Position numbers and translations under genes: made by a program. This document shows positions 4,396 through 48,833 of a stretch of DNA of 64,000 bases, piece after piece (position 1 is the stretch's first letter; the number at the start of each line of letters is the position of its first letter). Source of the DNA: Escherichia phage BUCT632; the sequence record PQ488502.1; one strand, given 5' to 3'. The notes under the pieces were generated by a model. The model was not told the DNA's origin, searched no databases, and saw only the letters and a list, made by a program, of their open reading frames with translations.

Positions 4396-4436
4396 TAGAT
4401 AAATAGGGGCGAAAGCCCCTCTTATTTGGAGAGACT

Positions 4437-4673: not shown

Positions 4674-4701
4674 TAGTTTTCTACACAATAAAGGATAAGT
4701 T

Positions 4702-5403: not shown

Positions 5404-5404
5404 T

Positions 5405-5433
5405 TTGCTTTCGGCTCCAAAATTCTGTATAAT
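5405..5433 (+). promoter_or_regulatory. PN25-type sigma70 promoter
   Basis: TTGCTT 5405-5410, 17-nt spacer, TATAAT 5428-5433. Confidence 0.6.
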
Positions 5434-5473
5434 ATATTCATAAATTTGAGAAAACAATAAAAGGAAAACAAAT

Positions 5474-5656
5474 ATGCCAGTATCTAAAAATGTTCGTAAA
5501 AATGGTAAGAAAGCTACTCGTAATCTGGGTATCCGTCGTATGGCTGAACGTCAATCAGGTATCCAGAAAATCTTTGATCTGCTAAATCGTGCTAATCCTA
5601 AAATTGATAACAGTAACGATACTGTTCTGCGCACTCTGCTGGCAATTGGTCTGTAA
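5474..5656 (+). CDS. Hypothetical small basic protein
   Basis: 60-aa ORF directly downstream of promoter. Confidence 0.4.
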   Translation: MPVSKNVRKNGKKATRNLGIRRMAERQSGIQKIFDLLNRANPKIDNSNDTVLRTLLAIGL

Positions 5657-5709
5657 TAGACCAAATTTAAACAAATTCAAATCTCAAACTTCATATAAGG
5701 AAGCAAATA

Positions 5710-6348
5710 ATGACTACTCGTATTTCTAAAACTCGCGCTCTGGCAACTATCAAATCTCTGGAAGCTAAAATCCGTAAAGCTACTGAACAACAGCTTCTGA
5801 TCGCTGTTGGTGAAGGTAAGGATAAAAATAAGGTTGTAGTTGGCGCTGCAATCGAAGTAGATGACCTGTCTACCCGTATTAAGACTGATTTCCAATCTCT
5901 GCTGGATATGATGTCCCAGCGTGATCGTATCAAAGCTGCTCTGATTAAGAGCAATGCAGAAACAATCGTTGAGATTGGTTCTCGTAAAATGACTGTTGCG
6001 GAAGCAATTGAAGCTAAGCGTTCTATGGAGCTTAAAGCTCAACTGCTGGCTAACATGCGTAAGCAGTTCCATGCCGCTACGGTTAAGTTTAATACGCAGA
6101 AAGCACAGTTTGATGCTAAATATGAGCGTTTGCAGGATAGCATGGCTACCCGCGATAAGAAAACTTCCGAAGATGAAGTTAAAATGCAGCTCAACCTGCT
6201 GGAACTCAAGAATACTCCATTCTTGATTGATCCTCTGGAACTGGAGAAGCTGATTAAGCAGCATGACGAGGAATACCAGGACTTTGCAACAAATGTTGAC
6301 TTTGTTCTGTCCGAGTCTAACGCTTCTACCTTCATTGAAGTAGAGTAA
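5710..6348 (+). CDS. Hypothetical coiled-coil protein
   Basis: 212-aa ORF with RBS AAGGAAG; antisense ORF 5677..6390 judged spurious. Confidence 0.55.
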   Translation: MTTRISKTRALATIKSLEAKIRKATEQQLLIAVGEGKDKNKVVVGAAIEVDDLSTRIKTDFQSLLDMMSQRDRIKAALIKSNAETIVEIGSRKMTVAEAIEAKRSMELKAQLLANMRKQFHAATVKFNTQKAQFDAKYERLQDSMATRDKKTSEDEVKMQLNLLELKNTPFLIDPLELEKLIKQHDEEYQDFATNVDFVLSESNASTFIEVE

Positions 6349-6731
6349 TAATTTAAAAGCTAGTAAATCGGTAGACGAAAGCCCAAGCATCTTACCTCGC
6401 AGCAGCGGTTGAAATACGAGGTTAAATAAGACCGCTGACCATACTATAAAGTATAATCTATTGGAGATTATGTTTATTACACCAGCCTTTTAAGCTGACA
6501 CGTAAGAACAAAGCGTCGTTGATATTACCGACACAACTTCAAAGATAAACATTTAAGTATGAAAGCTGAAAAGTTTAAAGAACTCAAACTTCTAAACTTC
6601 TAAAGCTAAAAGATGCAAAGTATTCGTTGATGATTCAAACCCTAGATCAAAGGTACATGGCTCATAAGATATGGCCTGTGGCGCCTCTAGGCTGTTTATC
6701 GGTTTACTAGTTTCACAATTTAAAAATGTAT

Positions 6732-6760
6732 TTGCTAATTTACTAAGTTATCTGTATAAT
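6732..6760 (+). promoter_or_regulatory. PN25-type sigma70 promoter
   Basis: TTGCTA 6732-6737, 17-nt spacer, TATAAT 6755-6760. Confidence 0.6.
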
Positions 6761-6790
6761 ATATTTTTAAATTGATGAAACGAGGCTATT

Positions 6791-7108
6791 ATGACTTTTC
6801 ATATTTTGATTGATGATGTGCGTAATCTTCACGGAATGGACATTATCATTCGAACCCCAGAAGCCGCTGTAGAGTTTCTGAATAAAACTGATACCACAGG
6901 CCATTTCGTTTATATGGATAATGACTTGGCTGTAGATGGTATGGAAGGTTATCAAATTCTTCGTTTACTCTTAGAATTTGGGCAGAGACCAAAGAAAGTG
7001 GTACTAGTAACCTCGAACCCAGTAGCTAAGCAAAATATGCGTAATGATTTGCTTGACTTAGGGTATAAAGAAAATCCCAATCGTGTTGAATATGATTGGC
7101 AGGAGTAA
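6791..7108 (+). CDS. Hypothetical protein
   Basis: 105-aa ORF downstream of promoter. Confidence 0.45.
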   Translation: MTFHILIDDVRNLHGMDIIIRTPEAAVEFLNKTDTTGHFVYMDNDLAVDGMEGYQILRLLLEFGQRPKKVVLVTSNPVAKQNMRNDLLDLGYKENPNRVEYDWQE

Positions 7109-7113
7109 AAAGA

Positions 7114-7563
7114 ATGAAGGCAGCTTTGCTTTTAGTAGCTGCCCTTACCTTCAGCTTTAGTAGTCAGGCATCGCACGATGCAAAAGAAATAGATTGCATT
7201 GCTAAAAATATCTATTTCGAGAGTCGTGGTGAGGGCATAAAGGGAATGACGGCGATTGCACATGTTACTAAAAACCGTGTAAACTCCGGTAAATTCCCAG
7301 ATTCCTACTGTAAAGTAGTATATCAGTCTAACCAGTTCTCTTGGGTATCTAAGAGACCAAAAGTTGATAAAACCGATGAGGCTTGGCAAACAGCCAAGAA
7401 TTTAGCTAGAGTGATATACTACGTTGATTTACCACAAGATCCTACACATGGAGCACTATACTTCCATAGTGGTAAAGATAAACCTTATTGGACAAAGAAG
7501 TTTAAGAAAACAACTAAGATTAAGGGACATACGTTTTATAAACCTGTTGTCACTAAAACTTAA
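7114..7563 (+). CDS. SleB-like cell wall hydrolase domain protein with signal peptide
   Basis: N-terminal signal-like MKAALLLVAALTFSFSSQA; SleB-like stretch NIYFESRGEG...AIAHVTKNRV...YQSNQFSWV; ATG at 7114 with AGGAG RBS (track start 7096 is TTG). Confidence 0.6.
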   Translation: MKAALLLVAALTFSFSSQASHDAKEIDCIAKNIYFESRGEGIKGMTAIAHVTKNRVNSGKFPDSYCKVVYQSNQFSWVSKRPKVDKTDEAWQTAKNLARVIYYVDLPQDPTHGALYFHSGKDKPYWTKKFKKTTKIKGHTFYKPVVTKT

Positions 7564-7571
7564 AAATTTAC

Positions 7572-7600
7572 TTGCTTAAATACTTAAATTTCTGTATAAT
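7572..7600 (+). promoter_or_regulatory. PN25-type sigma70 promoter
   Basis: TTGCTT 7572-7577, 17-nt spacer, TATAAT 7595-7600. Confidence 0.6.
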
Positions 7601-7801
7601 ACTTCCATAAACTAATGAGAGGAAGCGAAATATGAAATCAGTTGTAATTATTGGTGTTAACACTCGCGGTATTCGTACTACGAAAACTGTTAAAACATCT
7701 AACGTGGCTGAAATTACTACTAACCCTAAAAAGTTTGATTTCGCCAAAGTCTCGGCAGTTATGACAGAACAATCTTTTAACCAAGCGTTAGGAATGAAAT
7801 A

Positions 7802-8245
7802 ATGGAAGAGAATATTTTAGATGTTTTGCGTAGAGCTTTGCAGGATTCTAAGTTTAATGGTTCTGATAAAGAAGTCGCTAAAAGCTACCAGACCATAATC
7901 GGGGATCTTCAGCGTATTGATAAAGATTTCATCACTTCTGAACAATTTGTGTCTTATCTCAAAGCTCAACTAAAAAGCATTAACCAGATGAAAGCTAAAC
8001 TTCATGGTCGAGATCTTGATAGCTATAGCTTACAGTCTGCTCAGTATGAATACATTCTAAATAAGTGGTTGCAGGAGTATCTGCCTCCTCAGTTATCTGA
8101 TACTGAGATTCGTAAATACTTTGCAGAATTAGTTAAGCTAAACCCTGGAATTACAAAGGGTATGCTGATGAAAGCGATTAAGGAAGAATTTCCTGGGCGT
8201 TATGATGGTGGTACTGCTGCTCAGATTGCTGGCGAATTTAATTAA
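7802..8245 (+). CDS. Hypothetical protein, possibly GatB/YqeY-domain like
   Basis: 147-aa ORF; weak resemblance to YqeY-type helical domain; assignment tentative. Confidence 0.4.
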   Translation: MEENILDVLRRALQDSKFNGSDKEVAKSYQTIIGDLQRIDKDFITSEQFVSYLKAQLKSINQMKAKLHGRDLDSYSLQSAQYEYILNKWLQEYLPPQLSDTEIRKYFAELVKLNPGITKGMLMKAIKEEFPGRYDGGTAAQIAGEFN

Positions 8246-8253
8246 AAATTCAT

Positions 8254-8282
8254 TTGCTAAATGCTTATAAATTCTGTATAAT
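8254..8282 (+). promoter_or_regulatory. PN25-type sigma70 promoter driving an ORF-free transcript
   Basis: TTGCTA 8254-8259, 17-nt spacer, TATAAT 8277-8282; no ORF for about 790 nt downstream. Confidence 0.6.
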
Positions 8283-8289
8283 ATATTCA

Positions 8290-9079
8290 TAAATTAGGGA
8301 ACAGCGAGCCGATTACGCTGAGTGCAGAATCCCAACCGGAGCGCATTGAATAGAGTCGGTGGGTTAGTTGTAAAACTAGTACACAGGGGGCGGCAATCCC
8401 GGTTAGTGGCTAGAACGTGTAAAATGAGGCGTCTGAAACCTCTCCCCTAAACTCTTCTCTAATTTATAAATAGTGGGGTGTGGAAATCACTTATGTAGTA
8501 ACACTGCCGTCCTAGTATAATTGGTATTATCAAGCCGTAACTGGTGGAAGATGTAGGTTCGAATCCTACGGTCGGTAAGAACTGGATAACTGATGCTTTT
8601 AACGTAAAAGCTTCCGAGGTTAGTTGCGCACTGCCTAAACCACGCGGTAGTTGGTTCCAGACTAACCAACCAGTCTGCTGAATAGTTTTATTACGATTTA
8701 ACTATGTCCAGGCTAAAGAAGAACTTTAGAAGGTATTCTAGGATAGTGAAGTTCTTTCTCCATATCGGAGTAGTTTTTCAAGCTATCCACAAAGTGGGAA
8801 ATGCTGACATGAGAGATGTCACTAATGGTGCACAATAGCACAGGTAATTCGCGATAACTCCTGTTGAGTAGCAGCAAAAGGCGGGAAGTCATGACCCCAA
8901 GCCTAACCGAGTCCTCAATATACCGCAGGATATAACCACTAAGTCACCCTGACTTAAACTGGAAAATAATAGACGTTACCGTATTTTGTCTTGAAATACT
9001 TAATGAGTGAGACTTATGACTCTCCCGGTATCGTCTGTATTTTTAAGAGTTTTTACGAGAGTTCTTAAAAATACTTAAA
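8290..9079 (+). ncRNA. Promoter-driven ORF-free region; candidate structured non-coding RNA(s) or degenerate tRNA
   Basis: no plus-strand ORF of 60 aa or more; T-arm-like hairpin GTAGG-TTCGAAT-CCTAC at 8553-8569 with acceptor-like pairing 8506-8512/8570-8576 but no anticodon arm; several local hairpins. Confidence 0.3.
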
Positions 9080-9154
9080 CGGGGTGTAGTCTAAGGGAGA
9101 GGCAGGAGTCTTCTAAATTCCTTTATGCAGGTTCGAATCCTGTCACCTCGGCCA
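9080..9154 (+). tRNA. tRNA-Arg (anticodon UCU)
   Basis: acceptor CGGGGTG/CACCTCG, D-stem GTCT/AGGC, anticodon arm GGAGT-CTTCTAA-ATTCC, T-arm GCAGG-TTCGAAT-CCTGT, encoded CCA. Confidence 0.7.
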
Positions 9155-9188
9155 ATTTTATTAACTGTAACTAAAACAAAGGAAACAT

Positions 9189-10136
9189 ATGTTTAATACT
9201 AAAAATATGAAAGAACTGACTTCTGAGCAGAAAGTAATTCGTACTATTAAACGTTGGGGTATTGGTGCTGTAGTTGGTTTAGCAGGCTTGATTCTAGCTT
9301 TTAATTCATATACTATTGTTTCTGATGGTACGGTTAAAACCCAAACATTCCTGGGTAAAGTAGATCCTAATCCAGTATTGCCTGGTTTCCATCTTGTAAA
9401 TCCGTTTGCATCTTTCGATACTTTTAGTACAAAAGATATTGCTGTAAAATTAGATAAACTTCAGGTTCCTAGCCAGGATAAGTTTAAATCCACTGTTGAC
9501 CTGACTGTTATGTTGCAGTTTGATGGTTCTAAGGCACCGATTAACCGTATTAACGCAGGTACTCAGGATCAGGCACTAGACAAGTATGTAACTGAAAAAT
9601 TATTGTCTACTATTCGTGAGTTTGGTAAGTCTGTACCTAAAGCACAAGATTTGTTTGATGCTAAAATTCAGGCTCAATTACAAACTGCAATTCAACAGGA
9701 AGTTGAAGAGTATGCACGCCCATATGGTTACACAGTTAAGCAGGTGTTCCTTCAGGATATTACTCTGCCACCAGTAATCATGGAGCAGGTACAGAATACC
9801 AAAGTTCGTGAAGAGCAAGTTAATGCTGCGAAAGCTGAACTGGCTCGTGTTGAACAGGAAGCACAGCAGAAGGTTAAACAAGCAGAAGCAGATCGTGAAG
9901 CTCGTAATAACCAAGCTATTGCTAATGAACGTGACGCAGATGCTAAACTGTATGCAGCTAAGAAAGAAGCTGAAGCTAACGCCGCACTGCAACGTACCAT
10001 TACTCCTGAGATGATTCGTTGGAAACAACTGGAAGTTGAAATGATTCGTGCTCAGAAATATCAAGGTGGTGTACCGCAGACTGTGGTTGGCACTGGCTAT
10101 GATGGCCAAATGATTATGGATATGCGTAATAAATAA
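9189..10136 (+). CDS. SPFH/band-7 (prohibitin/HflK-like) membrane protein
   Basis: N-terminal TM segment, SPFH-like core and C-terminal Ala/Glu/Gln-rich coiled coil. Confidence 0.7.
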   Translation: MFNTKNMKELTSEQKVIRTIKRWGIGAVVGLAGLILAFNSYTIVSDGTVKTQTFLGKVDPNPVLPGFHLVNPFASFDTFSTKDIAVKLDKLQVPSQDKFKSTVDLTVMLQFDGSKAPINRINAGTQDQALDKYVTEKLLSTIREFGKSVPKAQDLFDAKIQAQLQTAIQQEVEEYARPYGYTVKQVFLQDITLPPVIMEQVQNTKVREEQVNAAKAELARVEQEAQQKVKQAEADREARNNQAIANERDADAKLYAAKKEAEANAALQRTITPEMIRWKQLEVEMIRAQKYQGGVPQTVVGTGYDGQMIMDMRNK

Positions 10137-37257: not shown

Positions 37258-38142
37258 ATGTATAACTTTAAAGATAAACTAAGACAAAATGCTGGCAAAG
37301 GAAAGGCAAAGGAGAATAATAGTGTTCCTAATGCTAAAGTACTTCCGTTTCCTGAACTAACTCAAGAAGAAAAAGATAAACTAGCATTTATGTTCGATGC
37401 ACTTATAGGATTAAGTGGACGACTGTACTCCACCCTTAGTCTTAATGAGAAACGTCTAGTAGAGATGTTTTGTAAACGTTACCCAGTTACTTCAAAGGGC
37501 AATGCCCATAAAGAAGGTGAAAAAGCATTCACAGTCTTAAAAATCAGTGCATATGCACATCGTTTCTTAGTTTATGGGTTACAGATGGAATACTTCACCA
37601 TTCCACCATTTAAGTCATTTCACATTTTTGAAGATGAACGAATGAATATTGATGATCTCTATGGAGATACGTACAAATATTCAGGGAGTCCATTCCATGA
37701 TGCATTAAGAAGCTATCCTACTAGTTATTTACCAGTTAGGGCATCACAAGGTAAAGCTAGCATCTTTGCGGTATACTCAGGATCTAAAGCATCTGATCTA
37801 GAAACTTATATATTTAAAGAGCGTAAATCTGTGCTTCCAGATGAAGCATTATATAATAATCCATTGCTTCCAGAAAAAGAACCAGAGAAAATTGATGTAA
37901 CCCCACCAACCCCATCTGATTCTCCTTATCTGAAGTTTGAAAATCAAGTTGGATGGGTTCTAGAAATGGGTGTAGCCTCACCGCTTGCTGCAGCATTCAT
38001 CAATAGGTATCTAGAAATTCCTGACGAGTTCCACTCACGTTATAATACGAATATTCAGATTACAGATGAATTAATAGCCATTGCAAAAGGTACACCTACT
38101 GACACTGAGGCGTATCAAAAAGCATACCAAGAGTTACTATAA
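37258..38142 (+). CDS. Hypothetical protein
   Basis: 294-aa ORF with RBS GAGAGA; last plus-strand early gene before the repeat locus. Confidence 0.5.
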   Translation: MYNFKDKLRQNAGKGKAKENNSVPNAKVLPFPELTQEEKDKLAFMFDALIGLSGRLYSTLSLNEKRLVEMFCKRYPVTSKGNAHKEGEKAFTVLKISAYAHRFLVYGLQMEYFTIPPFKSFHIFEDERMNIDDLYGDTYKYSGSPFHDALRSYPTSYLPVRASQGKASIFAVYSGSKASDLETYIFKERKSVLPDEALYNNPLLPEKEPEKIDVTPPTPSDSPYLKFENQVGWVLEMGVASPLAAAFINRYLEIPDEFHSRYNTNIQITDELIAIAKGTPTDTEAYQKAYQELL

Positions 38143-38562
38143 GATCCTGCATGTCTCGGTGCACAATACCTGTACCGAGACTCAAATACAAACTCTCGTT
38201 GACAGATAGCTAAATGTATGTTATCATAACTCTATGAGTTAATAGAATTAACCATTTAGAGTTGCCACACAGAAGGTGTGGTGGTTCAGTAATTTAAAAT
38301 TACTAACTTGTAGCGGAGGATACGGAGCGACAGGACAAGTTAATAAGTAATTTAATATAAATTGCTAGAAACATCACGAGACCTTCTGGCGGGGCAAAGC
38401 TCTATATGAGAACCCTGGGGGGATCTTATATTTAAAATAAAAGTAAAACTTTTGACCACATAATTTACATTCAAGATGATACACCGGTTGCCGCTCATCT
38501 GCTAGGATGGCACAACACTTTCCTAAAAACTCCAGAGTTCTCACGAAATATCACACTTCTAG

Positions 38563-38640
38563 TGGGCGGTTCTCCTAAGTTTCTAGGAACATATACTAGG
38601 CGGTTTAATACAGGGCGGTTATTGGGAGGGCGGTTATTTC
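38563..38640. repeat. Four direct copies of GGGCGGTT spaced about 20-25 bp
   Basis: GTGGGCGGTT, TAGGCGGTT, AGGGCGGTT, AGGGCGGTT within 80 bp. Confidence 0.6.
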
Positions 38641-38679
38641 TAGAAGGCATTTTTCCAAAACACATTTCCAGAAATTACT

Positions 38680-39279
38680 GTCGGATTTGCACACTGACAT
38701 AAGTTTAAAAACTGGTCGGATTTGCACAATTGCCTAAGTTTTTAGGAACATATAATCTCCTGAAAATGGCAGCATTATTTCGGGCCGAAGGCCCATGATT
38801 GCCTGAGTTTTTAGAGCCACAGAAATTTTCACTTGTCAAGCTATTTTGCCCCATTTTGCTAATAAAATTTTACTTTATCTCACCCCAAGCCCAATTAACC
38901 CAAATCTTCTCAACTCTTCCCCAAAAACGCAGCAAATCAGGCGTTGCACGCCACCAATGCTGCTCCTCTCGCAGTTCCCCCTATTTTCTCTCGCTCTCTC
39001 ATCTTATCCCCAAACCCACACAATCACACACCCTCTCATCGAAGTCACAAAAATCTTGTCGGATTCGCACATCTTAATCCTAGAAAAACCGTGTCGGATT
39101 TGCACATACCCCACAGGATTCGAACGCAGTTCGAGATTGCTGGAGTTTTTGGGAGACAGATTCGTCACTCTCACGAATTTATAAATTTTTCGGGTCGGAT
39201 TTGCACACTACCAAAAATTGTCGGATTTGCACATACACGCCCGCACGTAACACCCGTGGAGCAATGTCGGATTTGCACA
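38680..39279. repeat. Seven direct copies of 14-bp iteron-like motif GTCGGATTTGCACA
   Basis: copies at 38680, 38715, 39058 (variant GTCGGATTCGCACA), 39093, 39193, 39219, 39266; irregular spacing. Confidence 0.8.
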
Positions 39280-39282
39280 AAA

Positions 39283-39306
39283 GCGCAGGGCAATTGCCCT
39301 GCGCTA
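39283..39306. repeat. Perfect 24-bp palindrome AGCGCAGGGCAATTGCCCTGCGCT
   Basis: 10-bp GC-rich arms around AATT centre. Confidence 0.75.
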
Positions 39307-39530
39307 AATGAGAATAAAAATAAGAATCATTCTCATTTAAAAAGCGGAATGAGAATGATAATAATTCGCATTTAGAAAGTGAAACGATTCTCACTTAGAA
39401 AGTGGAATGATTCTCATTTAAAAAACGGAATGAAAATTATTCAGGAAGTGAAACGATTCTCATTTAGAAAGTGGAATGCGAATGATAATGATTCGCATTT
39501 AAGAATGGAAGTGAGAAACACTGCTATTTA
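39307..39530. repeat. AT-rich degenerate tandem repeat array (units like GAATGATTCTCATTTAAAAA)
   Basis: at least 8 related units of about 20-25 bp with GAATGA/TCTCATTT cores. Confidence 0.65.
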
Positions 39531-39615
39531 AGTTATCCACAGACTTATCAACAGCACGATTTGACTTGACAAAATCCTAGCCATTTTGAAGCGTTATTAA
39601 CAGACTTATCCACAG
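39523..39615. promoter_or_regulatory. Two DnaA-box consensus sites (TTATCCACA)
   Basis: TTATCCACA at 39523-39531 and 39607-39615, exact matches to E. coli DnaA box consensus. Confidence 0.6.
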
Positions 39616-39960
39616 CTTATCCTACTGTATAAATATACAGTATTCCTATGCAGTGAATAATTCTAATATACCGCTAAAACGCTCTCAAAGATTGGAGGAG
39701 GCTTGAAAATTAGTTAGCCCGCTAACGATCACACAAGGCGACACGTAACACCCTAATCATTAGCAGGCTAACCATCGCGGGCGCTGTCAAATAAGAATGA
39801 TTCTTATTTGAGAATTGGGGGCACTTCCTGATAGTTGCGCCCCGTGATTATTATAGTAGTGGGCAATCGTTACGCTTTGCCCACTCCCGCCACTCATCTT
39901 GATGCCTAGACTTGCGACGGCGTACTAAAAACCGTTTGTACCAGTGATTAAACCATCGTT

Positions 39961-40164
39961 TCATAAATCTTCCTCCGGTAGTCGATGCGTGATTTTTTCC
40001 TCTTCCCCGTAGGAATCCACTAAATACTGATAATAACCATCGTGATCATAAATCACTTTATCATACTCGCCACGCTCGACCGCTTGTCTATTTTCCGGCG
40101 TATCGGGCACGTAAAAAACATCAACCATTGTGCTAGTTTTGGTCACAACAATTTTATTGCTCAT
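39961..40164 (-). CDS. Hypothetical protein
   Basis: 67-aa minus-strand ORF, first of a minus-strand block. Confidence 0.4.
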   Translation of the reverse strand: MSNKIVVTKTSTMVDVFYVPDTPENRQAVERGEYDKVIYDHDGYYQYLVDSYGEEEKITHRLPEEDL

Positions 40165-40216
40165 AATAACGCTCCGTTACTATATAATCTCGTTGCAATA
40201 CACCAAAATTATATAG

Positions 40217-40432
40217 TTACTCATATTCTAGCTCGAAAATATCCTCACCATATAATTTGATTAAATCAACTAAATAAAACGCTGTGCCAGTATTATTATT
40301 TCTCCTTATAAATCTATGATTCGCGTCTTTAAATACAGTGAATACATCACCTGTTTTACCTACTCCCCATAAATCCTGTGTTAATTTTACCCGTTTAACC
40401 TTTAGCAACATATTCCAAGTAATTTCATTCAT
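40217..40432 (-). CDS. Hypothetical protein
   Basis: 71-aa minus-strand ORF. Confidence 0.4.
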   Translation of the reverse strand: MNEITWNMLLKVKRVKLTQDLWGVGKTGDVFTVFKDANHRFIRRNNNTGTAFYLVDLIKLYGEDIFELEYE

Positions 40433-40788
40433 TGCGCCACCTTTCGAAACGCTGTTTCAATACTATCCGCAGTGGATTGAATATATGCGCCTTTCATTAT
40501 CAGGCGCTCGGTGCATACTTTGCGGAAAATATTAATAAAATCATCTTCATTTTCTGCAATTAATGCTTCCCCCATAACTTGAACGTCACAAGATGCAAAG
40601 GTCAAAAATTGAAACGCTAGTTCACGGGCAACGACCGCATTGATTTTATAATGCGCCTTGCCCTCATAAATATTAATAACGCCCTTATAAGCTGGGGAAA
40701 GCTGATTTAAGTAGTTTGCTAGTAATGCCGGACGGCAATTAGCAACAAAACGATTACCTTCATAAATAACCATTTGACAACCTCCCAA
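40429..40788 (-). CDS. Hypothetical protein
   Basis: 119-aa minus-strand ORF overlapping downstream gene by 4 nt. Confidence 0.4.
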   Translation of the reverse strand: MGGCQMVIYEGNRFVANCRPALLANYLNQLSPAYKGVINIYEGKAHYKINAVVARELAFQFLTFASCDVQVMGEALIAENEDDFINIFRKVCTERLIMKGAYIQSTADSIETAFRKVAQ

Positions 40789-40896
40789 TTATATAGCCGG
40801 ATAATAACATAAAGATCCCCAATGAAAGGGGATCATTCTTAAATAGGGTGGCTGTAAAACCGCCAACCATTGCAAGGATAATAACAATAACGCTTT

Positions 40897-41109
40897 TCAT
40901 AGCACCCCACGAAACGCAGCGTAAAAGGTGGCAAAATGTTTAACCGTTTCAGCGATCACGTTGCCGCGCTTATCAAATTTCTTTTCTGTAACACGAAAAG
41001 CGTTTTTATTACGTGCTACATATTCGATTTTACAATCTTCCCGCTCGAACGTGTTAACATCCACCAGCTTAAATCCTTTCGAACGTGCAAGAGAAACGTT
41101 ACGGATCAT
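40897..41109 (-). CDS. Hypothetical protein
   Basis: 70-aa minus-strand ORF. Confidence 0.4.
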   Translation of the reverse strand: MIRNVSLARSKGFKLVDVNTFEREDCKIEYVARNKNAFRVTEKKFDKRGNVIAETVKHFATFYAAFRGVL

Positions 41110-41307
41110 TTTTATTCTCCTTTACTAGTCATGCAGCCCAGCAGATAAGAAAACGCAGCAATGCCAGCGCCAATAATAACGGCGTGAACGCCAAAAGCTA
41201 TTGCAAATAACGATAAAATAGCGCCCAAGATACCCGCCAGAATAGCTCGAAAAATAATCATTTTTATTCTCCTAGTCAGTGGGGGATATAATATCCCCCG
41301 TTACTAA

Positions 41308-41538
41308 TTACATTAAAACAATTTTTGCGGCTTGTTTTTTAGTGCAATGTTCAGCTTTCAGGGTATCCAGCAAAAAGCCCGCCGTTTGCTGATCGATTTT
41401 ATCGGCGTTGTATAGTTCTTGGATGGTGTTATAAGTTTTAGCAATGCCGAACTCCTGCACCATTTCATGAATAACAACGCGATTGGACACCCAACCTTGA
41501 GCGGTAAACAGATGAGTAGCAGAAGAGTAAGCAACCAT
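41308..41538 (-). CDS. Hypothetical protein
   Basis: 76-aa minus-strand ORF. Confidence 0.4.
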   Translation of the reverse strand: MVAYSSATHLFTAQGWVSNRVVIHEMVQEFGIAKTYNTIQELYNADKIDQQTAGFLLDTLKAEHCTKKQAAKIVLM

Positions 41539-41642
41539 TTTAAGCCTCCAAATTTTTGGGAAATTTTCAATCCACCGTTTTGGTGTAAAGGCATTATAAC
41601 AAAAAAGGCCACCATAAAAGGCGACCTTTACAAAACTTTACA

Positions 41643-42137
41643 TTAGACTACTTGTAAGGATTCAACATTGAAACATCGTTTCAATTCGTCATGCAAAACA
41701 GCGTATTCCTCCCATCGGGTACTATCAGGAATATAAACAAGCTGTTTTAATCGATTTGCGTATATTACCGCTTTGTTATCGACTATCTCGACGCCGCCAT
41801 ATTTAATAATTAATTTCATGACGGAATTAATAGGATCGCCGCCGTTTACATATGTGCCGGATTTACTTAGCTGATAATGATAAAGGCTTGCATATACGTT
41901 TTCATTTTCATACCATTCGCCAGTTTCTTCGTCTTCATAGCCATCACTACCAAAACGAGAAGCATTATCAACAGCCATTTCCTGAGCAAAAGCGTCCAGA
42001 TCCGTACCAGCAGGAACAAAGTATTCCTCGGTGTTCCCTTCCCCGCAATAGCCAGTATGACAATCGACTAAAATGATCATATCATGTTTAGCCGTGCTTA
42101 CTTCCCCTAGCGAGAAGCCGTATTTTTCCTCAGCCAT
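41643..42137 (-). CDS. Hypothetical acidic protein
   Basis: 164-aa minus-strand ORF. Confidence 0.5.
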   Translation of the reverse strand: MAEEKYGFSLGEVSTAKHDMIILVDCHTGYCGEGNTEEYFVPAGTDLDAFAQEMAVDNASRFGSDGYEDEETGEWYENENVYASLYHYQLSKSGTYVNGGDPINSVMKLIIKYGGVEIVDNKAVIYANRLKQLVYIPDSTRWEEYAVLHDELKRCFNVESLQVV

Positions 42138-42202
42138 TTATTAGCCTCCTATTAATTAACAAGGGAATAGTAAAGTGGGGAAATAATCCCCACTAAATAT
42201 TA

Positions 42203-43213
42203 TTACTCGATTTCGGTGCTAGTGGTAAAAGTAGAAATATCAATACCTTTCACCATTTCATCAATCATTTCAGCGATGTTAAAACTTTGCACCATTTCCA
42301 GCATTGCCGCTTCCATAGCCGCCCCCGCTACCGCTTTCGCCTTTTGGTTACTCGGTGCGTACTGGTCAACCGCCACACTCAGCAGGTTAGCAATCACTAC
42401 TCGACCGATCGGCGTATCAATATAACCTTTAATCATAAACGGTGCTTTTTTAGCCGCTACTTTCGTAATTTGAGTCAGTGCAATTTTACCCGCTTCCAGT
42501 TTTGCAGCATTTACAACAGCGGATTTATTAGCGGCAACGATGTTAGCAATCTTGGTCATGGTGTTTTTTCCTTTGTTTTCAGTAGTTTGAGTATTAACGC
42601 TTTGAGTGTTAGAATTTACAGCATGGTTTTCTACGCTGTCAATAATCTGATCTTCATCTTTCCAGAAAGAAAAACCAGCGCTTTCTATATCCCCATCATA
42701 AATATACGGGTATAACTCCCGTGGTAACAAAAAATTACCATCGCCATCAAAAGCCATTATACCAGTATATTGAGATCCGTCGTTATCCGGCTTATGCCAT
42801 CCAGCGGGTAAATACTTCCAGATAACATCTAAAAATCCCTCAATGCTAGAAAGTCCATTTATCAGATCAAGCCCAATAAGCTCGAAACCATTTATATTAA
42901 ATGATTGACGGCCTGAATTGCTATGATACGCAACAATATTATTACCCTGCGTAATAATAAAATCGGCATCCGGCCCCGCTCCCCTGCCTGTAAAGATATG
43001 GCAATCCCGATTATATAAAACTAGCGTTGCCCCTTGTTTATATAACGGCAAAAAACCATCCATATCATAAGCGTCATAATCATCAAAAAAGTTTTGATGA
43101 ATAGTCTCAATCTTGTTAATAAAATGTTTAATGCTGGTTGACTTGCTACCGTCCAGCAGGTTGCGCAATGCACCCTTTAATACGGTGGCATTATCAGGTT
43201 TATACAGCCTCAT
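42203..43213 (-). CDS. Hypothetical protein
   Basis: 336-aa minus-strand ORF; start preceded (on minus strand) by AGGAGGCCGAACAA RBS. Confidence 0.55.
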   Translation of the reverse strand: MRLYKPDNATVLKGALRNLLDGSKSTSIKHFINKIETIHQNFFDDYDAYDMDGFLPLYKQGATLVLYNRDCHIFTGRGAGPDADFIITQGNNIVAYHSNSGRQSFNINGFELIGLDLINGLSSIEGFLDVIWKYLPAGWHKPDNDGSQYTGIMAFDGDGNFLLPRELYPYIYDGDIESAGFSFWKDEDQIIDSVENHAVNSNTQSVNTQTTENKGKNTMTKIANIVAANKSAVVNAAKLEAGKIALTQITKVAAKKAPFMIKGYIDTPIGRVVIANLLSVAVDQYAPSNQKAKAVAGAAMEAAMLEMVQSFNIAEMIDEMVKGIDISTFTTSTEIE

Positions 43214-43505
43214 TTGTTCGGCCTCCTCGTTAATCGGTGAGTGAATGATATAGATATTTGTTCACTAGGGGCAAGAAAAAAGAAAATGTTTTTTATTCCT
43301 TGCCTAGCGCCTATTTTTATGCTAACCGCGCAGCGGTGTAATAAAGAGCAAAAAACGGCGAAGCCACCAGGCCGCAGCATTGAGGCTTTACTTTACTATT
43401 ACCTTGCAGCGTTTAGCTCGTTAGAATGCGATTTAGGCCGCTTAAAATTGATTGCAGTTGTTAACACTACCTTTTTACCCTGTATATTTATACAGTGGAA
43501 TAACC

Positions 43506-43872
43506 TGTGGATAAGTCTGTGCAAAAGTCCTTATATCGCCGCCTATCGTGTCAAGTTATTTCGTGCTGTGGATAACGTTGTGGATAACTTAAATGATAGT
43601 GGTTCTCACTTAGGCCGATAGTTTCTTATAGTTATTATTTCTCATTAATTTATAAGTATATTATATATTATGAAATAGTTAGTTGGCTAATGAGATTTTT
43701 CGTGATTAATAGTCTGCTAATAGTTTACTCTGTTACAGTCCACCAGCATGATTATCATCCTAGCAATTATTATCCTGCTATCTTTCCGATACATACTAGC
43801 AAACAAAAGTCAATTAATTTATTTCATAAAATAAGTAGTTATCCACTGGAAAATAAAAGTCAAGTGGATAAC
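43506..43872. promoter_or_regulatory. Cluster of five DnaA-box matches in divergent intergenic region
   Basis: TGTGGATAA at 43506-43514, 43567-43575, 43579-43587; TTATCCAC at 43839-43846; GTGGATAAC at 43864-43872. Confidence 0.55.
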
Positions 43873-44751
43873 TAGGAAAATTTCATTTTTGCTTTTGGGG
43901 ATAAGTTATCAACAAGGCTAGAATGCGCCTAAAACGCCCTAGAACGCGATGAAGTTTTTAGCCATCCCATCATAAGGGGATAGGCCGTTTATCGCTGCCA
44001 CGAGCTTTTTGGATTTTGTCAAGTAGGGCAAAGCAAATATAAATGAAAAAATTACTTGCCTATCTGCTTTATTTTGTGGTATTCGCGCGCCCGTTTCTTT
44101 TAATTTTAGGCCATCGCCGCACGGTGTCCGGTGAGTTTTGTCTTTACGTTTCTTTACAAAAATAAGGTTGCGCCATTTTCGGGAATCCCCTATTATTTAT
44201 CACGTAGGGCGGCAATGACGAACTACACGGCGGGAAGTTTACCGCCACGCTCTTTAAAAATTGGGTACATCTTAAAGCCTATCGGCGGTAAACTTATACA
44301 TTATAAGGAATCGACGATATGAAACAAACGCTTTTGATCACTGGCAAGCCTATTAAGGCACTAGATAGCAAAACAAAAAATTTGTTGACAGTAGCTCAAA
44401 GATCAGTAAAATATAGATTCACGCAGTACAAGAAAGGCCGCCAGCAAGGTTTAGAAATGATCTGGCGCAATATTATGATTGACCTGAAGGAAAATCATAA
44501 AAAATTGCAAAAAATTGTTTGACACCCTAGCCGATAGGCTTTAAGATGTACTCAGTTCGATAAGAGCGATAACTTGATAAAATTTGACGGTCGGTGCTTA
44601 CCATAATGCATCCCGCCCCCTAACGGGATATAGCGGCCTACGTGGAGTTCTTTAAATTGATTATAGCGGCGGGAGGATTGTTACTTATTACCTGCTAGTA
44701 TTTTCTAGTAGGTAATGCGGAACAATCCCCAAATAACTAGGAGTTTATACT

Positions 44752-45003
44752 ATGCAAAACGTTATTACCGCGCCGAAAGTTGGTCAATCCGTCTTCATTC
44801 CTTTCGTTACTAAAACGGATGAATTAACCGGAAAAGCCGAACGTATTAAAGGTGCGGCGCTTATGCCGTTCGATACAATCGACGCGGTATATGCTGAAAA
44901 TGAACGCAGTAACAACGGCAAGCCGATTTATAACGTTCGCGTTAAATCCGGCGACGTTGTAAAGGTTGTTCAACGCAACGAAAAATGGGAAGCTGTATTG
45001 TAA
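44752..45003 (+). CDS. Hypothetical protein
   Basis: 83-aa ORF with AGGAGTTTATACT-ATG initiation context shared by neighbouring genes. Confidence 0.45.
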   Translation: MQNVITAPKVGQSVFIPFVTKTDELTGKAERIKGAALMPFDTIDAVYAENERSNNGKPIYNVRVKSGDVVKVVQRNEKWEAVL

Positions 45004-45104
45004 TGTAGTGTTAACTTTATATTCCCCTGAAATATGGGGAATATATGGATTAACATTTAGTTAATCATTAAATCCCTTAAATTAAACTAATAGGAGTTTT
45101 TACC

Positions 45105-45512
45105 ATGACTAACGCAAAAACCGCAAAATTCGCATGGAACGAAGAAAACACTCAGAAAGCTGTTTCTATGTATCAGCAGTTAATCAACGAAAACGGTTTA
45201 GATTTCGCAAATAGCGACGGTTTAAAAGAGATTGCAAAAGCAGTAGGCGCGGCTTCTCCCGTATCCGTTCGGTCAAAATTGACCAGTGCAAAAGCCTATC
45301 AAAAAAGCGATAAGCCGCGTAAAGTTGGCGGCGGTAGCTCTGTGCGTAAAGCTCACTATGTGCGCGTTATCGCTAAACATGCTATCGATTCCGGCATTAT
45401 CAAAGACGCCGATGATCTGGCAAGTCTGGAAAGTGCAAAACTTGAAACGCTGGACGCAGTAGCGCAATTGTTAGGCGTTGCTGATGAAGTAAAACAAGCC
45501 GCAGGCGAATAA
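45105..45512 (+). CDS. Hypothetical protein
   Basis: 135-aa ORF with shared AGGAGTTTTTACC-ATG context. Confidence 0.5.
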   Translation: MTNAKTAKFAWNEENTQKAVSMYQQLINENGLDFANSDGLKEIAKAVGAASPVSVRSKLTSAKAYQKSDKPRKVGGGSSVRKAHYVRVIAKHAIDSGIIKDADDLASLESAKLETLDAVAQLLGVADEVKQAAGE

Positions 45513-45513
45513 T

Positions 45514-45557
45514 AGTTATACCTTGCCCCCTTCTAGTGAGGGGGCAATAATATAACT
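45514..45557. other. Long palindromic hairpin (no U-tract) after gene
   Basis: AGTTATACCTTGCCCCC...GGGGGCAATAATATAACT. Confidence 0.5.
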
Positions 45558-45602
45558 GTTTAGCGATAGTTATTTTCTTCCCTTAAATCAGGAGTTTTAA
45601 AA

Positions 45603-45800
45603 ATGATTTTCTTCCCTACTGAATCTTTGATTCTAGGCTTGTTTATTATGGCGGCCTCATTATTGTTCGCTTATTTTCAAAATGATTTAGATTCGTATTA
45701 TTTTAAACGTAAATCTAAGTTAGCAAAACGTTTAGGTCTGCTTTGTTTTATCGCTGCCGTTGCTTGTGGTGTTAGTTCTAGCCTAGTGCCTTTAAATTAA
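45603..45800 (+). CDS. Hypothetical small membrane protein
   Basis: 65-aa ORF, two hydrophobic segments. Confidence 0.35.
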   Translation: MIFFPTESLILGLFIMAASLLFAYFQNDLDSYYFKRKSKLAKRLGLLCFIAAVACGVSSSLVPLN

Positions 45801-45890
45801 TGTTGCAAATTATAACGCCTATTATTTGAGGCGTTATATTTGGCAATATTGCCATTATTAATCTAATCCCTTTAATGGAGTTTTATTACT

Positions 45891-47561
45891 ATGATTATTT
45901 CCGCAGAAAAACAAACCGTTATCCTGAAAATGGCCGCTGACTTTAATTTCTATGGTAAACGTCTGCGCGCTACTAAACTGGAGGTCTGCGACGATATATC
46001 AAAAGCAGTCTACGATACAACGAAACATTCTACCGCCATTTGTGATTGGCTGGAAGCAAACAAACCAGCTAAACCGAAAGCGGCAAAAGTAGCAAAAGCC
46101 ATTAAAAACGACGAGCGCCCCGAAGCGGCTGGGATTGTTTCTAGTACGGTTGAGCAATGGGAAGTAAAACAGGGTAAACGTTTTATTATTACGTCGATTC
46201 AGAATAATACTTTCCCGCATAAAAACTTTTTAGCAAGTCTGGAAAAATTCGCTGAATATATCGGTGCCGATTTGCTTGTTTCTAAGTATATTTATAATAA
46301 AAACGGCTTCCAAAATGGAGAAGGTGCAGACGGAATCAAATATGATTCTGCGTTTGATAAATATATTTGCAGCAAAAACGTGTTTTTAAATAACCGCCGT
46401 TTTGCTTTCATGGCTGAAATTAATGTTTTGCCTACCGCAGATTATCCGCTTTCTGGATTCGCAGAAACTGCAACGGCTTTAAATATTGAAGGTCTGGCAA
46501 TTGGTCACGCTAAAATTACCGCTGAAAGCGTACCAGCTTTAAAAGGTGAAGTAGTGCGCCGTATGTACTCAACCGGAACGGCAACCCTCAAAAACTACAT
46601 TCAGCAGAAAGCAGGACAAAAGGCCGAGGCGCTGCATAACTTCGGTGCGCTGATTGTTGAGTTCGACGAGGACGGGGAATTTTTTGTTCGCCAGCTTGAA
46701 ACGATGGACGAAAGCGGGGTATTTTATGATCTGAATGTGTGCGCTACTCCTGCCGGATGCTATGAGACATCGGGGCATGTTTTAGGCTTGCAGTATGGTG
46801 ATATTCATGCAGAAAAACTAGATGAGGCTTGCGCTCAAGCGTCTTGGGGTCATGGTGATACTTATGGGCTTGTGGATATTCTCAAACCGAAATATCAGTT
46901 TGTACATGATGTGCATGATTTTACATCCCGCAATCATCATAACCGCGCTTCTGGTGTATTCCTAGCGAAACAGTACGCCGCCGGACGTGATAAGGTTATT
47001 GATGATCTTATCGATACGGGGCGCGTGCTGGAATCAATGGAGCGTGATTTTTCTCAAACAATCATTGTTGAATCAAATCACGATTTGGCGTTATCCCGTT
47101 GGCTGGATGATCGAAATGCTAACATCAAAGACGATCCAGCAAACGCCGAACTATATCACAGCCTAAACGCTGCAATCTATGCGGCTATTGCAAAGCAGGA
47201 CGATACTTTCAACGTGCTAGATTATGCCTTGCGTAAGGTAGCAGGTTGTGAATTTAACGCCATTTTCCTGACCACTGACCAATCATTTAAAATTGCAGGC
47301 ATTGAATGCGGCGTACACGGTCACAACGGCATTAACGGCAGCCGTGGCAACCCGAAACAATTTAAGAAATTGGGCAAGTTAAACACGGGGCATACGCATA
47401 CCGCCAGCATTTACGGTGGCGTTTATACCGCTGGCGTTGCTGGTAGTCTGGATATGGGTTACAACGTTGGCGCGTCAAGCTGGACGCAAACGCATTTAAT
47501 TACATACGCCAACGGCCAGCGCACTTTGATTGACTTTAAAAACGGCAAGTTTTTCGCATAA
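45891..47561 (+). CDS. A1: A1-like pre-early protein with calcineurin-like metallophosphoesterase motifs
   Basis: 556 aa (length matches recalled T5 A1); motifs GDIHAEKLD, HDVHDF, GHTHTASIY. Confidence 0.6.
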   Translation: MIISAEKQTVILKMAADFNFYGKRLRATKLEVCDDISKAVYDTTKHSTAICDWLEANKPAKPKAAKVAKAIKNDERPEAAGIVSSTVEQWEVKQGKRFIITSIQNNTFPHKNFLASLEKFAEYIGADLLVSKYIYNKNGFQNGEGADGIKYDSAFDKYICSKNVFLNNRRFAFMAEINVLPTADYPLSGFAETATALNIEGLAIGHAKITAESVPALKGEVVRRMYSTGTATLKNYIQQKAGQKAEALHNFGALIVEFDEDGEFFVRQLETMDESGVFYDLNVCATPAGCYETSGHVLGLQYGDIHAEKLDEACAQASWGHGDTYGLVDILKPKYQFVHDVHDFTSRNHHNRASGVFLAKQYAAGRDKVIDDLIDTGRVLESMERDFSQTIIVESNHDLALSRWLDDRNANIKDDPANAELYHSLNAAIYAAIAKQDDTFNVLDYALRKVAGCEFNAIFLTTDQSFKIAGIECGVHGHNGINGSRGNPKQFKKLGKLNTGHTHTASIYGGVYTAGVAGSLDMGYNVGASSWTQTHLITYANGQRTLIDFKNGKFFA

Positions 47562-48098: not shown

Positions 48099-48833
48099 AT
48101 GAATAAAGCTATTATGAATATTTCCCGCAGCTTCCCGCATATTTCCCGCGTCATGATTTGGGATTTAGACGGCACTATCATTAATTCTTTCCATCGTGTA
48201 GCGCCTTGCTTTGATAGTGAGGGCAATTTAGATTTAAATAAGTATAAAAATGAAGCGTGTAAACATCATTTAATAATGCAGGATTCTTTATTGCCATTGG
48301 TTGAATACATGCGCCAATGTATGAATGACGCAAATACTTTAAATATTATTTGTACCGCTCGACTAATGAGCAAGTCGGACTATTATTATTTGCGTAAACA
48401 AGGTCTGCGCGGTCGTGGTAATAGTAATATCCGCGTGTTTTCCCGCGATACACTGCATAAATATTTTAAAGCTGATAAGGTTAGCGAGATATACCACAGC
48501 AAAGACGCAGTTTATAAATCTTATTATTTTGAATTATTTAAACAGCTATATCCGAACGCTGATTTTACGATGATTGATGATCATAAAGGCGTATTATCAG
48601 CGGCGGCATCATACGGATTTAAAACGCTGGACGCGCAAGCCGTTAACGATATTCTATCAATCGGGGTGGCATTGATAGGTGAAACCTTTATCGATGAATC
48701 GCTCGATGATGATAATGATTATCAGTTCCTAGCCGATCGTTTGAAATTATGTTGGGAAGGTATGACCGAGGAAGAACGCGCAGAATATAGTTGCAGCCCG
48801 CAACAATACATGGAGAAATTAAAAGTTGCATAA
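48099..48833 (+). CDS. dmp: HAD-family 5'-deoxynucleotidase (dmp-like)
   Basis: 244 aa; HAD motif I MIWDLDGTII near N-terminus; size and position consistent with recalled T5 dmp. Confidence 0.5.
   Translation: MNKAIMNISRSFPHISRVMIWDLDGTIINSFHRVAPCFDSEGNLDLNKYKNEACKHHLIMQDSLLPLVEYMRQCMNDANTLNIICTARLMSKSDYYYLRKQGLRGRGNSNIRVFSRDTLHKYFKADKVSEIYHSKDAVYKSYYFELFKQLYPNADFTMIDDHKGVLSAAASYGFKTLDAQAVNDILSIGVALIGETFIDESLDDDNDYQFLADRLKLCWEGMTEEERAEYSCSPQQYMEKLKVA

Follow-up and report, generated by a model that had tools for sequence, protein, structure and literature searches.

Escherichia phage BUCT632 (PQ488502.1) carries, within the 64,000 nucleotides analysed here (referred to as the window), a 1.5-kb region at 43214-44750 that lies between two divergently transcribed gene blocks and contains a 132-bp element in which DnaA boxes are combined with a palindrome resembling the LexA/SOS box. 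When the 1.5-kb stretch was compared with phage sequences, 456 phage records matched, 249 of them covering at least 80% of it with 91-95% identity among those listed, and almost all matches were T5-like phages of Escherichia and Salmonella. Comparison with T5 (NC_005859) and with a T5-like genome with annotated terminal repeats showed that the window is oriented opposite to the T5 standard and that positions 43214-44750 correspond to T5 ~4482-6494, in the middle of the 10-kb terminal repeat that constitutes the first-step-transfer (FST) DNA. To the right of the region lie gene 007, A2, a membrane protein gene and A1 (556 aa); to the left lie gene 011 and then the remainder of the right-arm pre-early operon. 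This gene order agrees with the T5 left terminal repeat and with the promoters annotated there, and the region occupies the position of the FST central region, that is, between the A2/A1/dmp-side and the 011-017-side pre-early operons, inside the terminal repeat. The T5 interval contains in addition hegG, encoding an HNH endonuclease (T5 5411-5929), which is absent from BUCT632. These data indicate that BUCT632 is almost certainly a T5-like phage (Tequintavirus) and that the region is the untranslated centre of its terminal repeat between the divergent pre-early operons.

The region is equivalent to T5 Repeat Regions 1 and 2 minus the HNH insert. It is a mosaic made up of the 011-017 promoter, the 132-bp element, a variable insertion segment, hdi with two promoters and a structured mRNA leader. 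The presence of DnaA boxes in the pre-early non-coding DNA is an already published feature of T5-like phages. A preliminary description, made from the sequence alone, had proposed that the region is a control region for divergent transcription that depends on host factors. Its character as a divergent pre-early control region was borne out, with P-H22, P-D/E20 and the gene-011 promoter placed here by the T5 annotation and by a 2026 preprint (bioRxiv 10.64898/2026.04.02.716235). The link to host factors was also upheld in part, but its particulars had to be revised, in that the boxes do not appear to be promoter operators, the operator-like palindrome is better read as an RNA hairpin and one of the supposedly non-coding open reading frames (ORFs) matches hdi. 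The features that make up the element, its twin and the remaining box matches are as follows.

43480-43611, no strand assigned: 132-bp composite element, equivalent to T5 IRC-spacer-IRD (Repeat Region 2).
43478-43497 (core 43480-43495), no strand assigned: LexA/SOS-box-like palindrome ccCTGTATATTTATACAGtg, central copy, 21.2 bits.
43506-43514, minus strand: DnaA box 1, TTATCCACA, 9/9 match, strong slot.
43518-43526, minus strand: DnaA box 2, TTTTGCACA, fits the relaxed consensus TT(A/T)TNCACA, weak slot, 3 bp from box 1.
43567-43575, minus strand: DnaA box 3, TTATCCACA, 9/9 match.
43579-43587, minus strand: DnaA box 4, TTATCCACA, 9/9 match.
43839-43847 (plus strand) and 43863-43871 (minus strand): 8/9 DnaA matches TTATCCACT, arms of a palindrome.
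43896-43904 and 43906-43914: head-to-head pair of 8/9 DnaA matches.
39509-39640, no strand assigned: inverted twin element in the injection stop region, equivalent to T5 IRD'-spacer-IRC'.
39533, 39545, 39594 and 39606 (starts), plus strand: boxes of the distal copy, in the inverted twin.
39623-39642, no strand assigned: SOS-like box TACTGTATAAATATACAGTA, distal copy, 25.9 bits.

The segments 43480-43611 and 39509-39640 form an inverted repeat of 132 nt, 77% complementary and 3.8 kb apart. The twin sits past the far end of the 011-017 operon, and the two copies bracket that operon. The central copy is laid out as an SOS-like palindrome, 10 bp, a pair of DnaA boxes, 40 bp, a second pair of DnaA boxes and a conserved tail, CTTAAATGATAGTGGTTCTCAC. 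The element itself has been published. Davison 2020 (bioRxiv 10.1101/866236), covering T5 and 24 relatives, reported that the central Repeat Region 2 holds a 131-bp IRC-spacer-IRD whose twin, IRD'-spacer-IRC', belongs to the injection stop signal region, that the DnaA boxes are paired 3 bp apart and that the spacer is constant at 52 bp; by its account the boxes were first noticed in a 1987 paper, and the literature on Repeat Regions 1 and 2 cited in it comprises Heusterspreute 1987, Wang 2005 and Davison 2015. Later papers restate Davison's boxes and remark on the lack of an experimental test. In BUCT632 the 3-bp linker, box 2 and the next 40 bp add up to the same 52 bp as the published spacer, and we found both the inverted partner of ~131 bp at the injection stop and the DnaA/DnaA* pairs 3 bp apart.

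Perfect DnaA 9-mers occurred five times in the 64-kb window against 0.64 expected, and no shuffled sequence reached five. All five perfect TTATCCACA sites fall inside the two 132-bp inverted elements, the distal two at 39533 and 39606. The perfect boxes are real and non-random; one-mismatch boxes taken alone (29 observed against 19.8 expected in the window) were not significantly enriched. The five box matches of the preliminary description were recovered as three perfect and two 8/9 matches, and its tandem pair 12 bp apart (43567-43587) consists of two perfect TTATCCACA boxes, boxes 3 and 4. The relaxed-consensus box at 43518-43526 and the head-to-head 8/9 pair at 43896-43914 had been overlooked. 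The four boxes share one orientation, and their strong outer and weak inner sites bear a loose resemblance to the DnaA assembly region of oriC; a cluster of this kind might serve as a DnaA-dependent replication origin or helicase-loading site. Such a role is hardly credible here: no 13-mer unwinding repeats lie near the element, 43214-44335 contains no GATC, the flank is not markedly AT-rich, T5 origins map to mid-genome positions, and at the FST stage the replication genes have still to enter the cell.

The surroundings of the distal copy are rich in repeats. Beyond it, at 38671-39286, there are about seven plus-strand copies of TGTCGGATT(T/C)GCACA, with an embedded ATTTGCACA that agrees with the relaxed DnaA box at 8 of 9 positions and is oriented like the distal boxes. 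Adjoining it, at 39315-39521, seven tandem GAATGATTCTCAT-type units are arranged with a 23/35-bp spacing; the tail of both 132-bp elements (..GTG(G/T)TTCTCAC) resembles the first unit of this array. Fur-box-like sequences, GAGAATGATAATAATTCGC (15/19) at 39351-39369 and GCGAATGATAATGATTCGC (14/19) at 39478-39496, flank the 23-bp stop-region repeats, and a further one, GATGATGATAATGATTATC (17/19), is found at 48705-48723, which by position only is the dmp end of the T5 repeat. Fur-like matches recur at the equivalent positions of T5 and the Klebsiella phage; the Erwinia and Proteus phages have them in their stop-region repeats, and the Vibrio phages do not have them. They could be driven by composition.

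For close relatives, 37 loci were fetched around gene-007 homologues and 26 distinct intergenic regions were aligned. Both 132-bp copies, with identical boundaries, were present in 39 of 39 related loci. Conservation of the box positions in relatives had been set beforehand as a check, and the boxes passed it, occupying four fixed slots in 27 distinct central and 29 distinct distal copies. Box 1 was perfect in 22 of the 27 central and 19 of the 29 distal copies, box 4 in 22 and 25 respectively, and box 3 in 14 central copies, while box 2 was mostly degenerate. Overall, outer slots were generally perfect and inner slots generally degenerate (TTTTACACA, TTATTAACA, TTATCAACA). Column variability was 0.038 for box 1, 0.026 for box 4, 0.115 for box 3 and 0.144 for the spacer; as a reference, codon positions 1 to 3 of gene 007 gave 0.041, 0.037 and 0.137. 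The palindrome, box 1, box 4 and the tail (0.019-0.038) thus lie below gene 007 codon positions 1+2 and far below position 3. Because the two copies within a genome are only 74-80% alike, against 82-97% conservation of the central copy, to which the comparison between phages was confined, selection acts on each copy and the likeness does not merely reflect gene conversion.

The orientation of the intervening operon bears on a different view of the repeats. When window 39509-43611 is set against 5257-9220 of the Klebsiella phage vB_Kpn_K7_rec15, the 011 homologue and the gene beside it prove to be inverted there, and the elements keep position and orientation. The repeats may be able to mediate inversion; alternatively, what counts is the symmetric site-operon-site arrangement. 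If the inverted repeats were mainly recombination substrates flanking an invertible or exchangeable 011-017 cassette, with the motifs incidental, this inverted module between unmoved elements would be expected, as would the varying gene content and inter-copy distance among relatives. However, copies that are 74-80% identical are poor substrates for homologous recombination, and the constraint lies in short blocks resembling protein sites while the spacer drifts. We consider this explanation a slim prospect.

The most conserved block of the element is the palindrome CTGTATATTTATACAG, with a column variability of 0.019, which forms the operon-proximal end of each 132-bp copy. The SOS-box consensus of E. 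coli and Gammaproteobacteria is TACTGTATATATATACAGTA (e.g. sulA, umuDC, dinD), and the distal TACTGTATAAATATACAGTA, counted by hand, is identical to it at 19 of 20 positions. With an ad hoc matrix of 20 E. coli LexA operators, the distal site scored 25.9 and the central site 21.2 bits, compared with 12.4-24.2 bits for the source operators and 16.6 bits for the runner-up in the window. The distal score is higher than that of every operator in the matrix, and element scores as a whole (19.6-25.9 bits) are at or above those of known operators; by this ad hoc matrix, the CTGT-N8-ACAG palindrome has the score of a LexA operator. CTG...CAG is retained in 29 of 29 distinct distal copies and 23 of 27 distinct central copies. 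The term LexA does not occur in the Davison preprint (bioRxiv 10.1101/866236). In the literature searched, no paper was found that connects LexA or SOS boxes to the first-step DNA of T5-like phages, and the co-location of a near-consensus LexA site with DnaA boxes is possibly new in this sense of "not found", rather than "never reported". We lean towards the view that the boxes and the palindrome bind DnaA and LexA.

We then considered six distant family members, for which the A1 neighbourhood was analysed (~18 kb each, ~26 kb for Vibrio JSF12). Identity of A1 to that of the window was 74% for the Klebsiella phage, 66% for Erwinia, 42% for Proteus and 32-35% for the three Vibrio phages. Perfect TTATCCACA boxes were found in all six loci, with 2-5 per locus against 0.15-0.28 expected, and so was a CTGTAT-N4-ATACAG palindrome, against an expectation of at most 0.007. 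Boxes and palindromes were placed in non-coding DNA flanking the minus-strand pre-early operon, and in the Vibrio phages they are the only non-coding islands still alignable with the window. The distance from palindrome to box was fixed at 10 bp in the Markadamsvirinae-type phages examined, namely those of Tequintavirus, Klebsiella and Erwinia. A search with the 35-nt LexA-DnaA composite motif gave 34 viral matches, all on contigs of 100-121 kb and only in T5-like genomes. Among 185,579 reference bacterial and archaeal genomes no host locus with the composite motif was found, apart from one match on a 3-kb contig of a metagenome-assembled genome (MAG). That contig, RZZU01000077.1 (382-416; 'Clostridia bacterium' MAG), is probably a fragment of a T5-like phage binned into the MAG. 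A1-bearing phages of Dinoroseobacter and Agrobacterium, hosts with a different LexA motif, had no FST-like locus.

These comparisons also bear on whether phage proteins, such as A2 acting with A1, are what recognises the motifs, the likeness to DnaA and LexA sites being coincidental. A1 and A2 are needed for second-step transfer and are conserved in the family, A2 binds DNA, and the conserved tail and GTCAAG motifs have no obvious host partner. Against this, several slots are 9/9 matches to the DnaA R-box and their variants obey the relaxed DnaA consensus, the palindrome agrees with the LexA 20-mer at 18-20 positions, flanking bases included, and both motifs stay constant while A1 drops to 32% identity. 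Recognition by phage proteins appears quite unlikely on these grounds.

The promoters and promoter candidates of the region are as follows.

43245-43274, minus strand: promoter of the 011-017 operon, -35 TTGCCC (43274-43269), -10 TATCAT (43250-43245), found in the sigma-70 scan.
44385-44412, plus strand: P-H22 equivalent, TTGACA-16 nt-TAAAAT, 11/12 in the sigma-70 scan, inside hdi.
44519-44547, plus strand: P-D/E20-like promoter, TTGACA-17 nt-TAAGAT, 10/12 in the scan, overlapping the hdi stop codon.
44016-44043, plus strand: candidate extra rightward promoter, TTGTCA-16 nt-TATAAA, read by eye.

The 011 promoter, which is followed by a 5' leader up to the 011 start at 43213, falls in the stretch homologous to the T5 promoter 6411-6489 just upstream of T5.011, and the 2026 preprint (bioRxiv 10.64898/2026.04.02.716235) lists the latter as experimentally characterised. 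The promoter at 44385-44412 aligns with the T5 feature 'promoter P-H 22' (4799-4873). That at 44519-44547, conserved in all relatives, is probably P-D/E20, which the same preprint draws as partly overlapping hdi. RefSeq gives the T5 'promoter P-D/E 20' as 327 bp (4338-4664), directly downstream of the best sigma-70 match, and this feature appears to mark a cloned fragment rather than the promoter. The candidate at 44016-44043 lies in a highly conserved block (variability 0.04-0.07); the scan was silent on it since its -10 ends in A. A terminator-like site on the minus strand at 43354-43369 was rejected, being weak, with three G.U pairs and a frequency no higher than chance.

No conserved promoter was found over the boxes or the palindrome when it was sought in both copies, and by eye the spacer GTCAAG motif, which resembles TTGACA, has no properly spaced -10. 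A promoter-like sequence, TTAACA-16 nt-TATATT (43461-43488), overlaps the central palindrome with its -10 over it; T5 and other relatives do not have this -35, and nothing comparable exists at the distal copy. The nearest mapped promoter, that of 011, has its -35 232 bp away from the boxes, and P-H22 is ~800 bp away, compared with the few tens of bp that a DnaA operator would require. A model in which host DnaA regulates the divergent pre-early promoters by using the boxes as operators can draw on the conservation of the boxes in a region that does contain those promoters, and in BUCT632 the 43461-43488 site would read through the boxes. Nevertheless, the boxes are 232 bp upstream of the 011 -35 and ~800 bp from P-H22. 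The element recurs past the 3' terminus of the 011-017 operon, with no promoter there to control, the 43461 site has no -35 in T5 and other relatives, and T5 without the element keeps a functional essential A1/A2 operon. A classical operator role is unlikely because of these distances and because the twin lies downstream of the operon, and we regard the operator model as very improbable.

Two further segments follow the element on its right.

43612-43835, no strand assigned: poorly conserved segment, site of hegG (HNH homing endonuclease) in T5 and other relatives.
43836-43914, no strand assigned: lineage-specific palindrome AGTTATCCACTgGA/TCaAGTGGATAACT with the head-to-head pair GGGGATAAgTTATCAACA.

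Column variability of the first segment was 0.21, the hegG insertion is visible in the alignment, and intergenic length among relatives ranges from 1479 to 2186 bp. The TTATCCACT palindrome allele was present in 11 of 26 distinct relatives (BUCT632 and 10 others), and T5 and 12 others carry at the same spot an alternative allele, GGTCTTGA...TCAAGACC with a T-run. The inverted pair of boxes described earlier at 43839-43872 therefore exists, as 8/9 matches, but is lineage-specific, without counterpart in T5 and half of the relatives. The two ~80-bp alleles (43836-43915) are sharply distinct, and each occurs in phages with and without the HNH insertion. The lineage-specific palindrome is a predicted hairpin (z = -3.0). 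As an intrinsic terminator, 43836-43874 was rejected: the terminator scan was silent, the stem is AT-rich and the T-run begins ~12 nt beyond it.

Two reading frames of the region deserve separate mention.

44319-44522, plus strand: hdi (T5.008), 67 aa, host division inhibitor targeting FtsZ.
44215-44322, plus strand: putative T5.009-like ORF of 35 codons, the C-terminal part of ORF 44131-44322, overlapping the IRA arm described below.

ORF 44319-44522 showed third-position bias across the 26 relatives (codon-position variability 0.086, 0.065 and 0.176), is 88% identical to T5.008 and matches phrog_4718 (E = 2.7e-40). The product of T5.008 (hdi) inhibits host division through FtsZ (PMC10714956; bioRxiv 10.64898/2026.04.02.716235). 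By homology and codon bias, ORF 44319-44522 is a real gene, hdi; the region is therefore not purely intergenic, and the plus-strand genes begin before 007 at 44752. The initial dismissal of the ORFs as non-coding was right for 43241-43621 and 43690-43875, which like 44043-44165 had no codon periodicity across the 26 relatives and no real family, and wrong for 44319-44522. T5 annotates T5.009 at the place of 44215-44322, where all codon positions are near-invariant (0.032, 0.022, 0.057) and the codon test is uninformative. ORFs 44043-44165 and 44131-44322, in different frames, match the N- and C-terminal halves of the 61-aa family phrog_17446; either a small gene is frameshifted in BUCT632, or the family was built from ORFs on conserved non-coding DNA, and codon periodicity was not seen.

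The plus-strand transcripts of the right half are predicted to contain two structures.

44672-44730, plus strand: two-stem RNA hairpin in the 5' leader of gene 007 (007-A2-A1 operon).
44248-44286, plus strand: IRA arm, pairing with IRA' and enclosing hdi.
44530-44568, plus strand: IRA' arm, overlapping the -10/start region of the P-D/E20-like promoter.

The palindrome TACCTGCTAG...CTAGTAGGTA at 44689-44714 is the upper stem of the first hairpin. This hairpin stops 9 nt short of the Shine-Dalgarno sequence GGAG at 44740-44743 and has a predicted free energy of -32.8 kcal/mol (z = -4.35). The consensus of 22 distinct sequences has 16 pairs, with 99.4% of cells paired and compensatory double changes in 7 of the 16. 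None of 500 shuffles was as good, and in slid registers pairing dropped to 32-56%. Since 34 G.U cells pair on the plus strand only and would be A.C mismatches on the opposite strand, the hairpin is selected at the level of the plus-strand transcript. In the Klebsiella and Erwinia phages the architecture is kept with unrelated inner-stem sequences. Judged by this covariation, the gene-007 palindrome is an RNA stem-loop and not a protein operator. What had been called an operator-like palindrome at 44683-44720 is thus present, at 44689-44714 and near the gene-007 ribosome binding site, but as an RNA hairpin and not next to the first plus-strand gene. An Rfam scan of 38000-46000 (E <= 1) returned two chance-level matches only, far under threshold. 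The IRA and IRA' arms (39 nt, 85% complementary) share a 27-bp core with 8 variable pairs. Read on the plus strand, every one of these is Watson-Crick or G.U and A.C never appears, one position occurring as C-G, U.G and U-A. This stem dominates the predicted fold (z = -7.4) and suggests a long-range RNA duplex of 27-39 bp that encloses hdi and overlaps the P-D/E20-like promoter. It is possible that the duplex is an RNase III target or an expression switch.

The association of the boxes with the injection stop has been interpreted before. In the model of Davison, DnaA, largely membrane-bound, tethers the incoming DNA to the membrane through the eight boxes of the two elements, possibly with a knot between the copies, and this is the stop signal, released by A1/A2 cutting. 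One copy does lie just inside the mapped shear point of first-step DNA, and the architecture is kept in 25 T5-like phages and, as found here, in more distant genera. On the other hand, the central copy is dispensable and Davison notes phages without it, the BF23 paper calls the model experimentally untested, and the model offers no explanation for the LexA-type palindrome, which is just as conserved and does not figure in the preprint. We consider the model in this form unlikely. The dispensability of the central copy follows from the T5 mutant deltaL-deltaR, reported in the 2026 preprint (bioRxiv 10.64898/2026.04.02.716235) to carry a deletion 'from hegG to 017', to be viable and to form small plaques: its junction primers at T5 5393 and 9161 map the deletion to T5 5394-9160, and since the mutant lives without the central element, that copy is dispensable. 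Copy losses always hit the central copy, and some phages are without it (Davison, bioRxiv 10.1101/866236).

All in all, we favour as the probable explanation that the two elements are landing sites for LexA and DnaA in the handling of FST DNA, with an RNA element in the leader of gene 007 in addition. As FST DNA enters, pre-existing host proteins would load onto the 132-bp elements. A LexA dimer would occupy the palindrome, and DnaA would take the outer high-affinity boxes and spread cooperatively to the weak inner ones. The resulting LexA/DnaA complexes might serve as cis-acting architectural or roadblock elements at both borders of the right-arm module. The elements would then belong to the handling or pausing apparatus of the first-injected DNA instead of serving the mapped promoters as operators. 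Of the two copies, the distal one next to the stop would be the principal one, and the central copy auxiliary and dispensable in the laboratory. The gene-007 palindrome would act at the RNA level, as a leader stem-loop with the shape of a T7 RNase III processing or stabilising site. That the role of the element is in pausing or organising DNA, rather than in promoter control, is put forward tentatively, at somewhat less than an even chance. The stronger version, in which a LexA and DnaA complex is, family-wide (Demerecviridae, from Escherichia to Vibrio phages), the host component of the T5 injection stop, we hold to be doubtful.

Several points weigh against this explanation. The deltaL-deltaR deletion takes out the central element (T5 ~6098-6229) and spares the distal one, and its small plaques could equally stem from the eight genes lost alongside. 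LexA is cytoplasmic, and proteins bound to DNA already inside the cell have no obvious way to halt entry. The BF23 paper is explicit that the DnaA boxes are without experimental test. The LexA matrix was compiled ad hoc, TTG replaces CTG in one half-site in 4 of the 27 central copies, and the 43461-43488 promoter-like site overlapping the palindrome may have a local regulatory role.

The mechanism of two-step injection in T5 has been open since the 1960s, and the ligand of the cis-acting stop signal is the question. The box slots and the LexA site are the only non-coding features that survive family-wide, which points to host ligands and names a second candidate. If this is true, LexA, which was not found implicated in T5 biology in the literature searched, would join DnaA in arresting, anchoring or insulating FST DNA. 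As the central copy is dispensable, the distal copy is the one to target experimentally. Action at the RNA level at gene 007 and around hdi would bear on expression of the A2/A1 operon and on the resistance of this locus to cloning.

When the region is set beside known systems, the closest is T5 itself. BUCT632 shares with T5 Repeat Regions 1 and 2 the position, the 131/132-bp inverted pair, the 52-bp spacer, the pairs 3 bp apart, IRA/IRA' around hdi and the HNH insertion polymorphism. In contrast to T5, it lacks hegG, all four of its central slots fit TT(A/T)TNCACA, where T5 has lost one, and it has the lineage-specific TTATCCACT palindrome, which T5 does not. What is added here to the Davison preprint (bioRxiv 10.1101/866236) is the LexA-type palindrome, together with the interpretation of IRA/IRA' and of the leader hairpin as RNA structures. 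P-H22 and P-D/E20 of T5 have counterparts, TTGACA-16-TAAAAT and TTGACA-17-TAAGAT, at homologous BUCT632 positions, the exact coordinates of P-D/E20 disagreeing between RefSeq and the 2026 preprint.

Hairpins that serve as RNase III processing or stabilising sites are known from T7 early mRNAs. The gene-007 hairpin resembles them in having two stems (8 and 12 bp here) and a small internal loop, and in its intercistronic or leader placement just upstream of the ribosome binding site; this likeness is one of the predicted fold, and 44672-44730 has neither sequence similarity to the T7 hairpins nor an Rfam match. At oriC, strong outer and weak inner DnaA sites favour cooperative loading of DnaA. 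Like the oriC, datA and DARS clusters of E. coli, the element has several co-oriented 9-mers with high-affinity sites flanking low-affinity ones. It differs from oriC arrays in its 3-bp spacing and 12-bp register, compared with a 2-bp spacing, and from all three clusters in having a LexA box attached and no unwinding element, GATC cluster or identified IHF site. Finally, the palindrome shares with Gammaproteobacterial LexA operators the CTGT-N8-ACAG core, the AT-rich centre, the TA/TA flanks and scores at or above the best of them, but unlike those operators it does not lie over a conserved promoter and is found in a virulent phage, in two inverted copies, each 10 bp from DnaA boxes.

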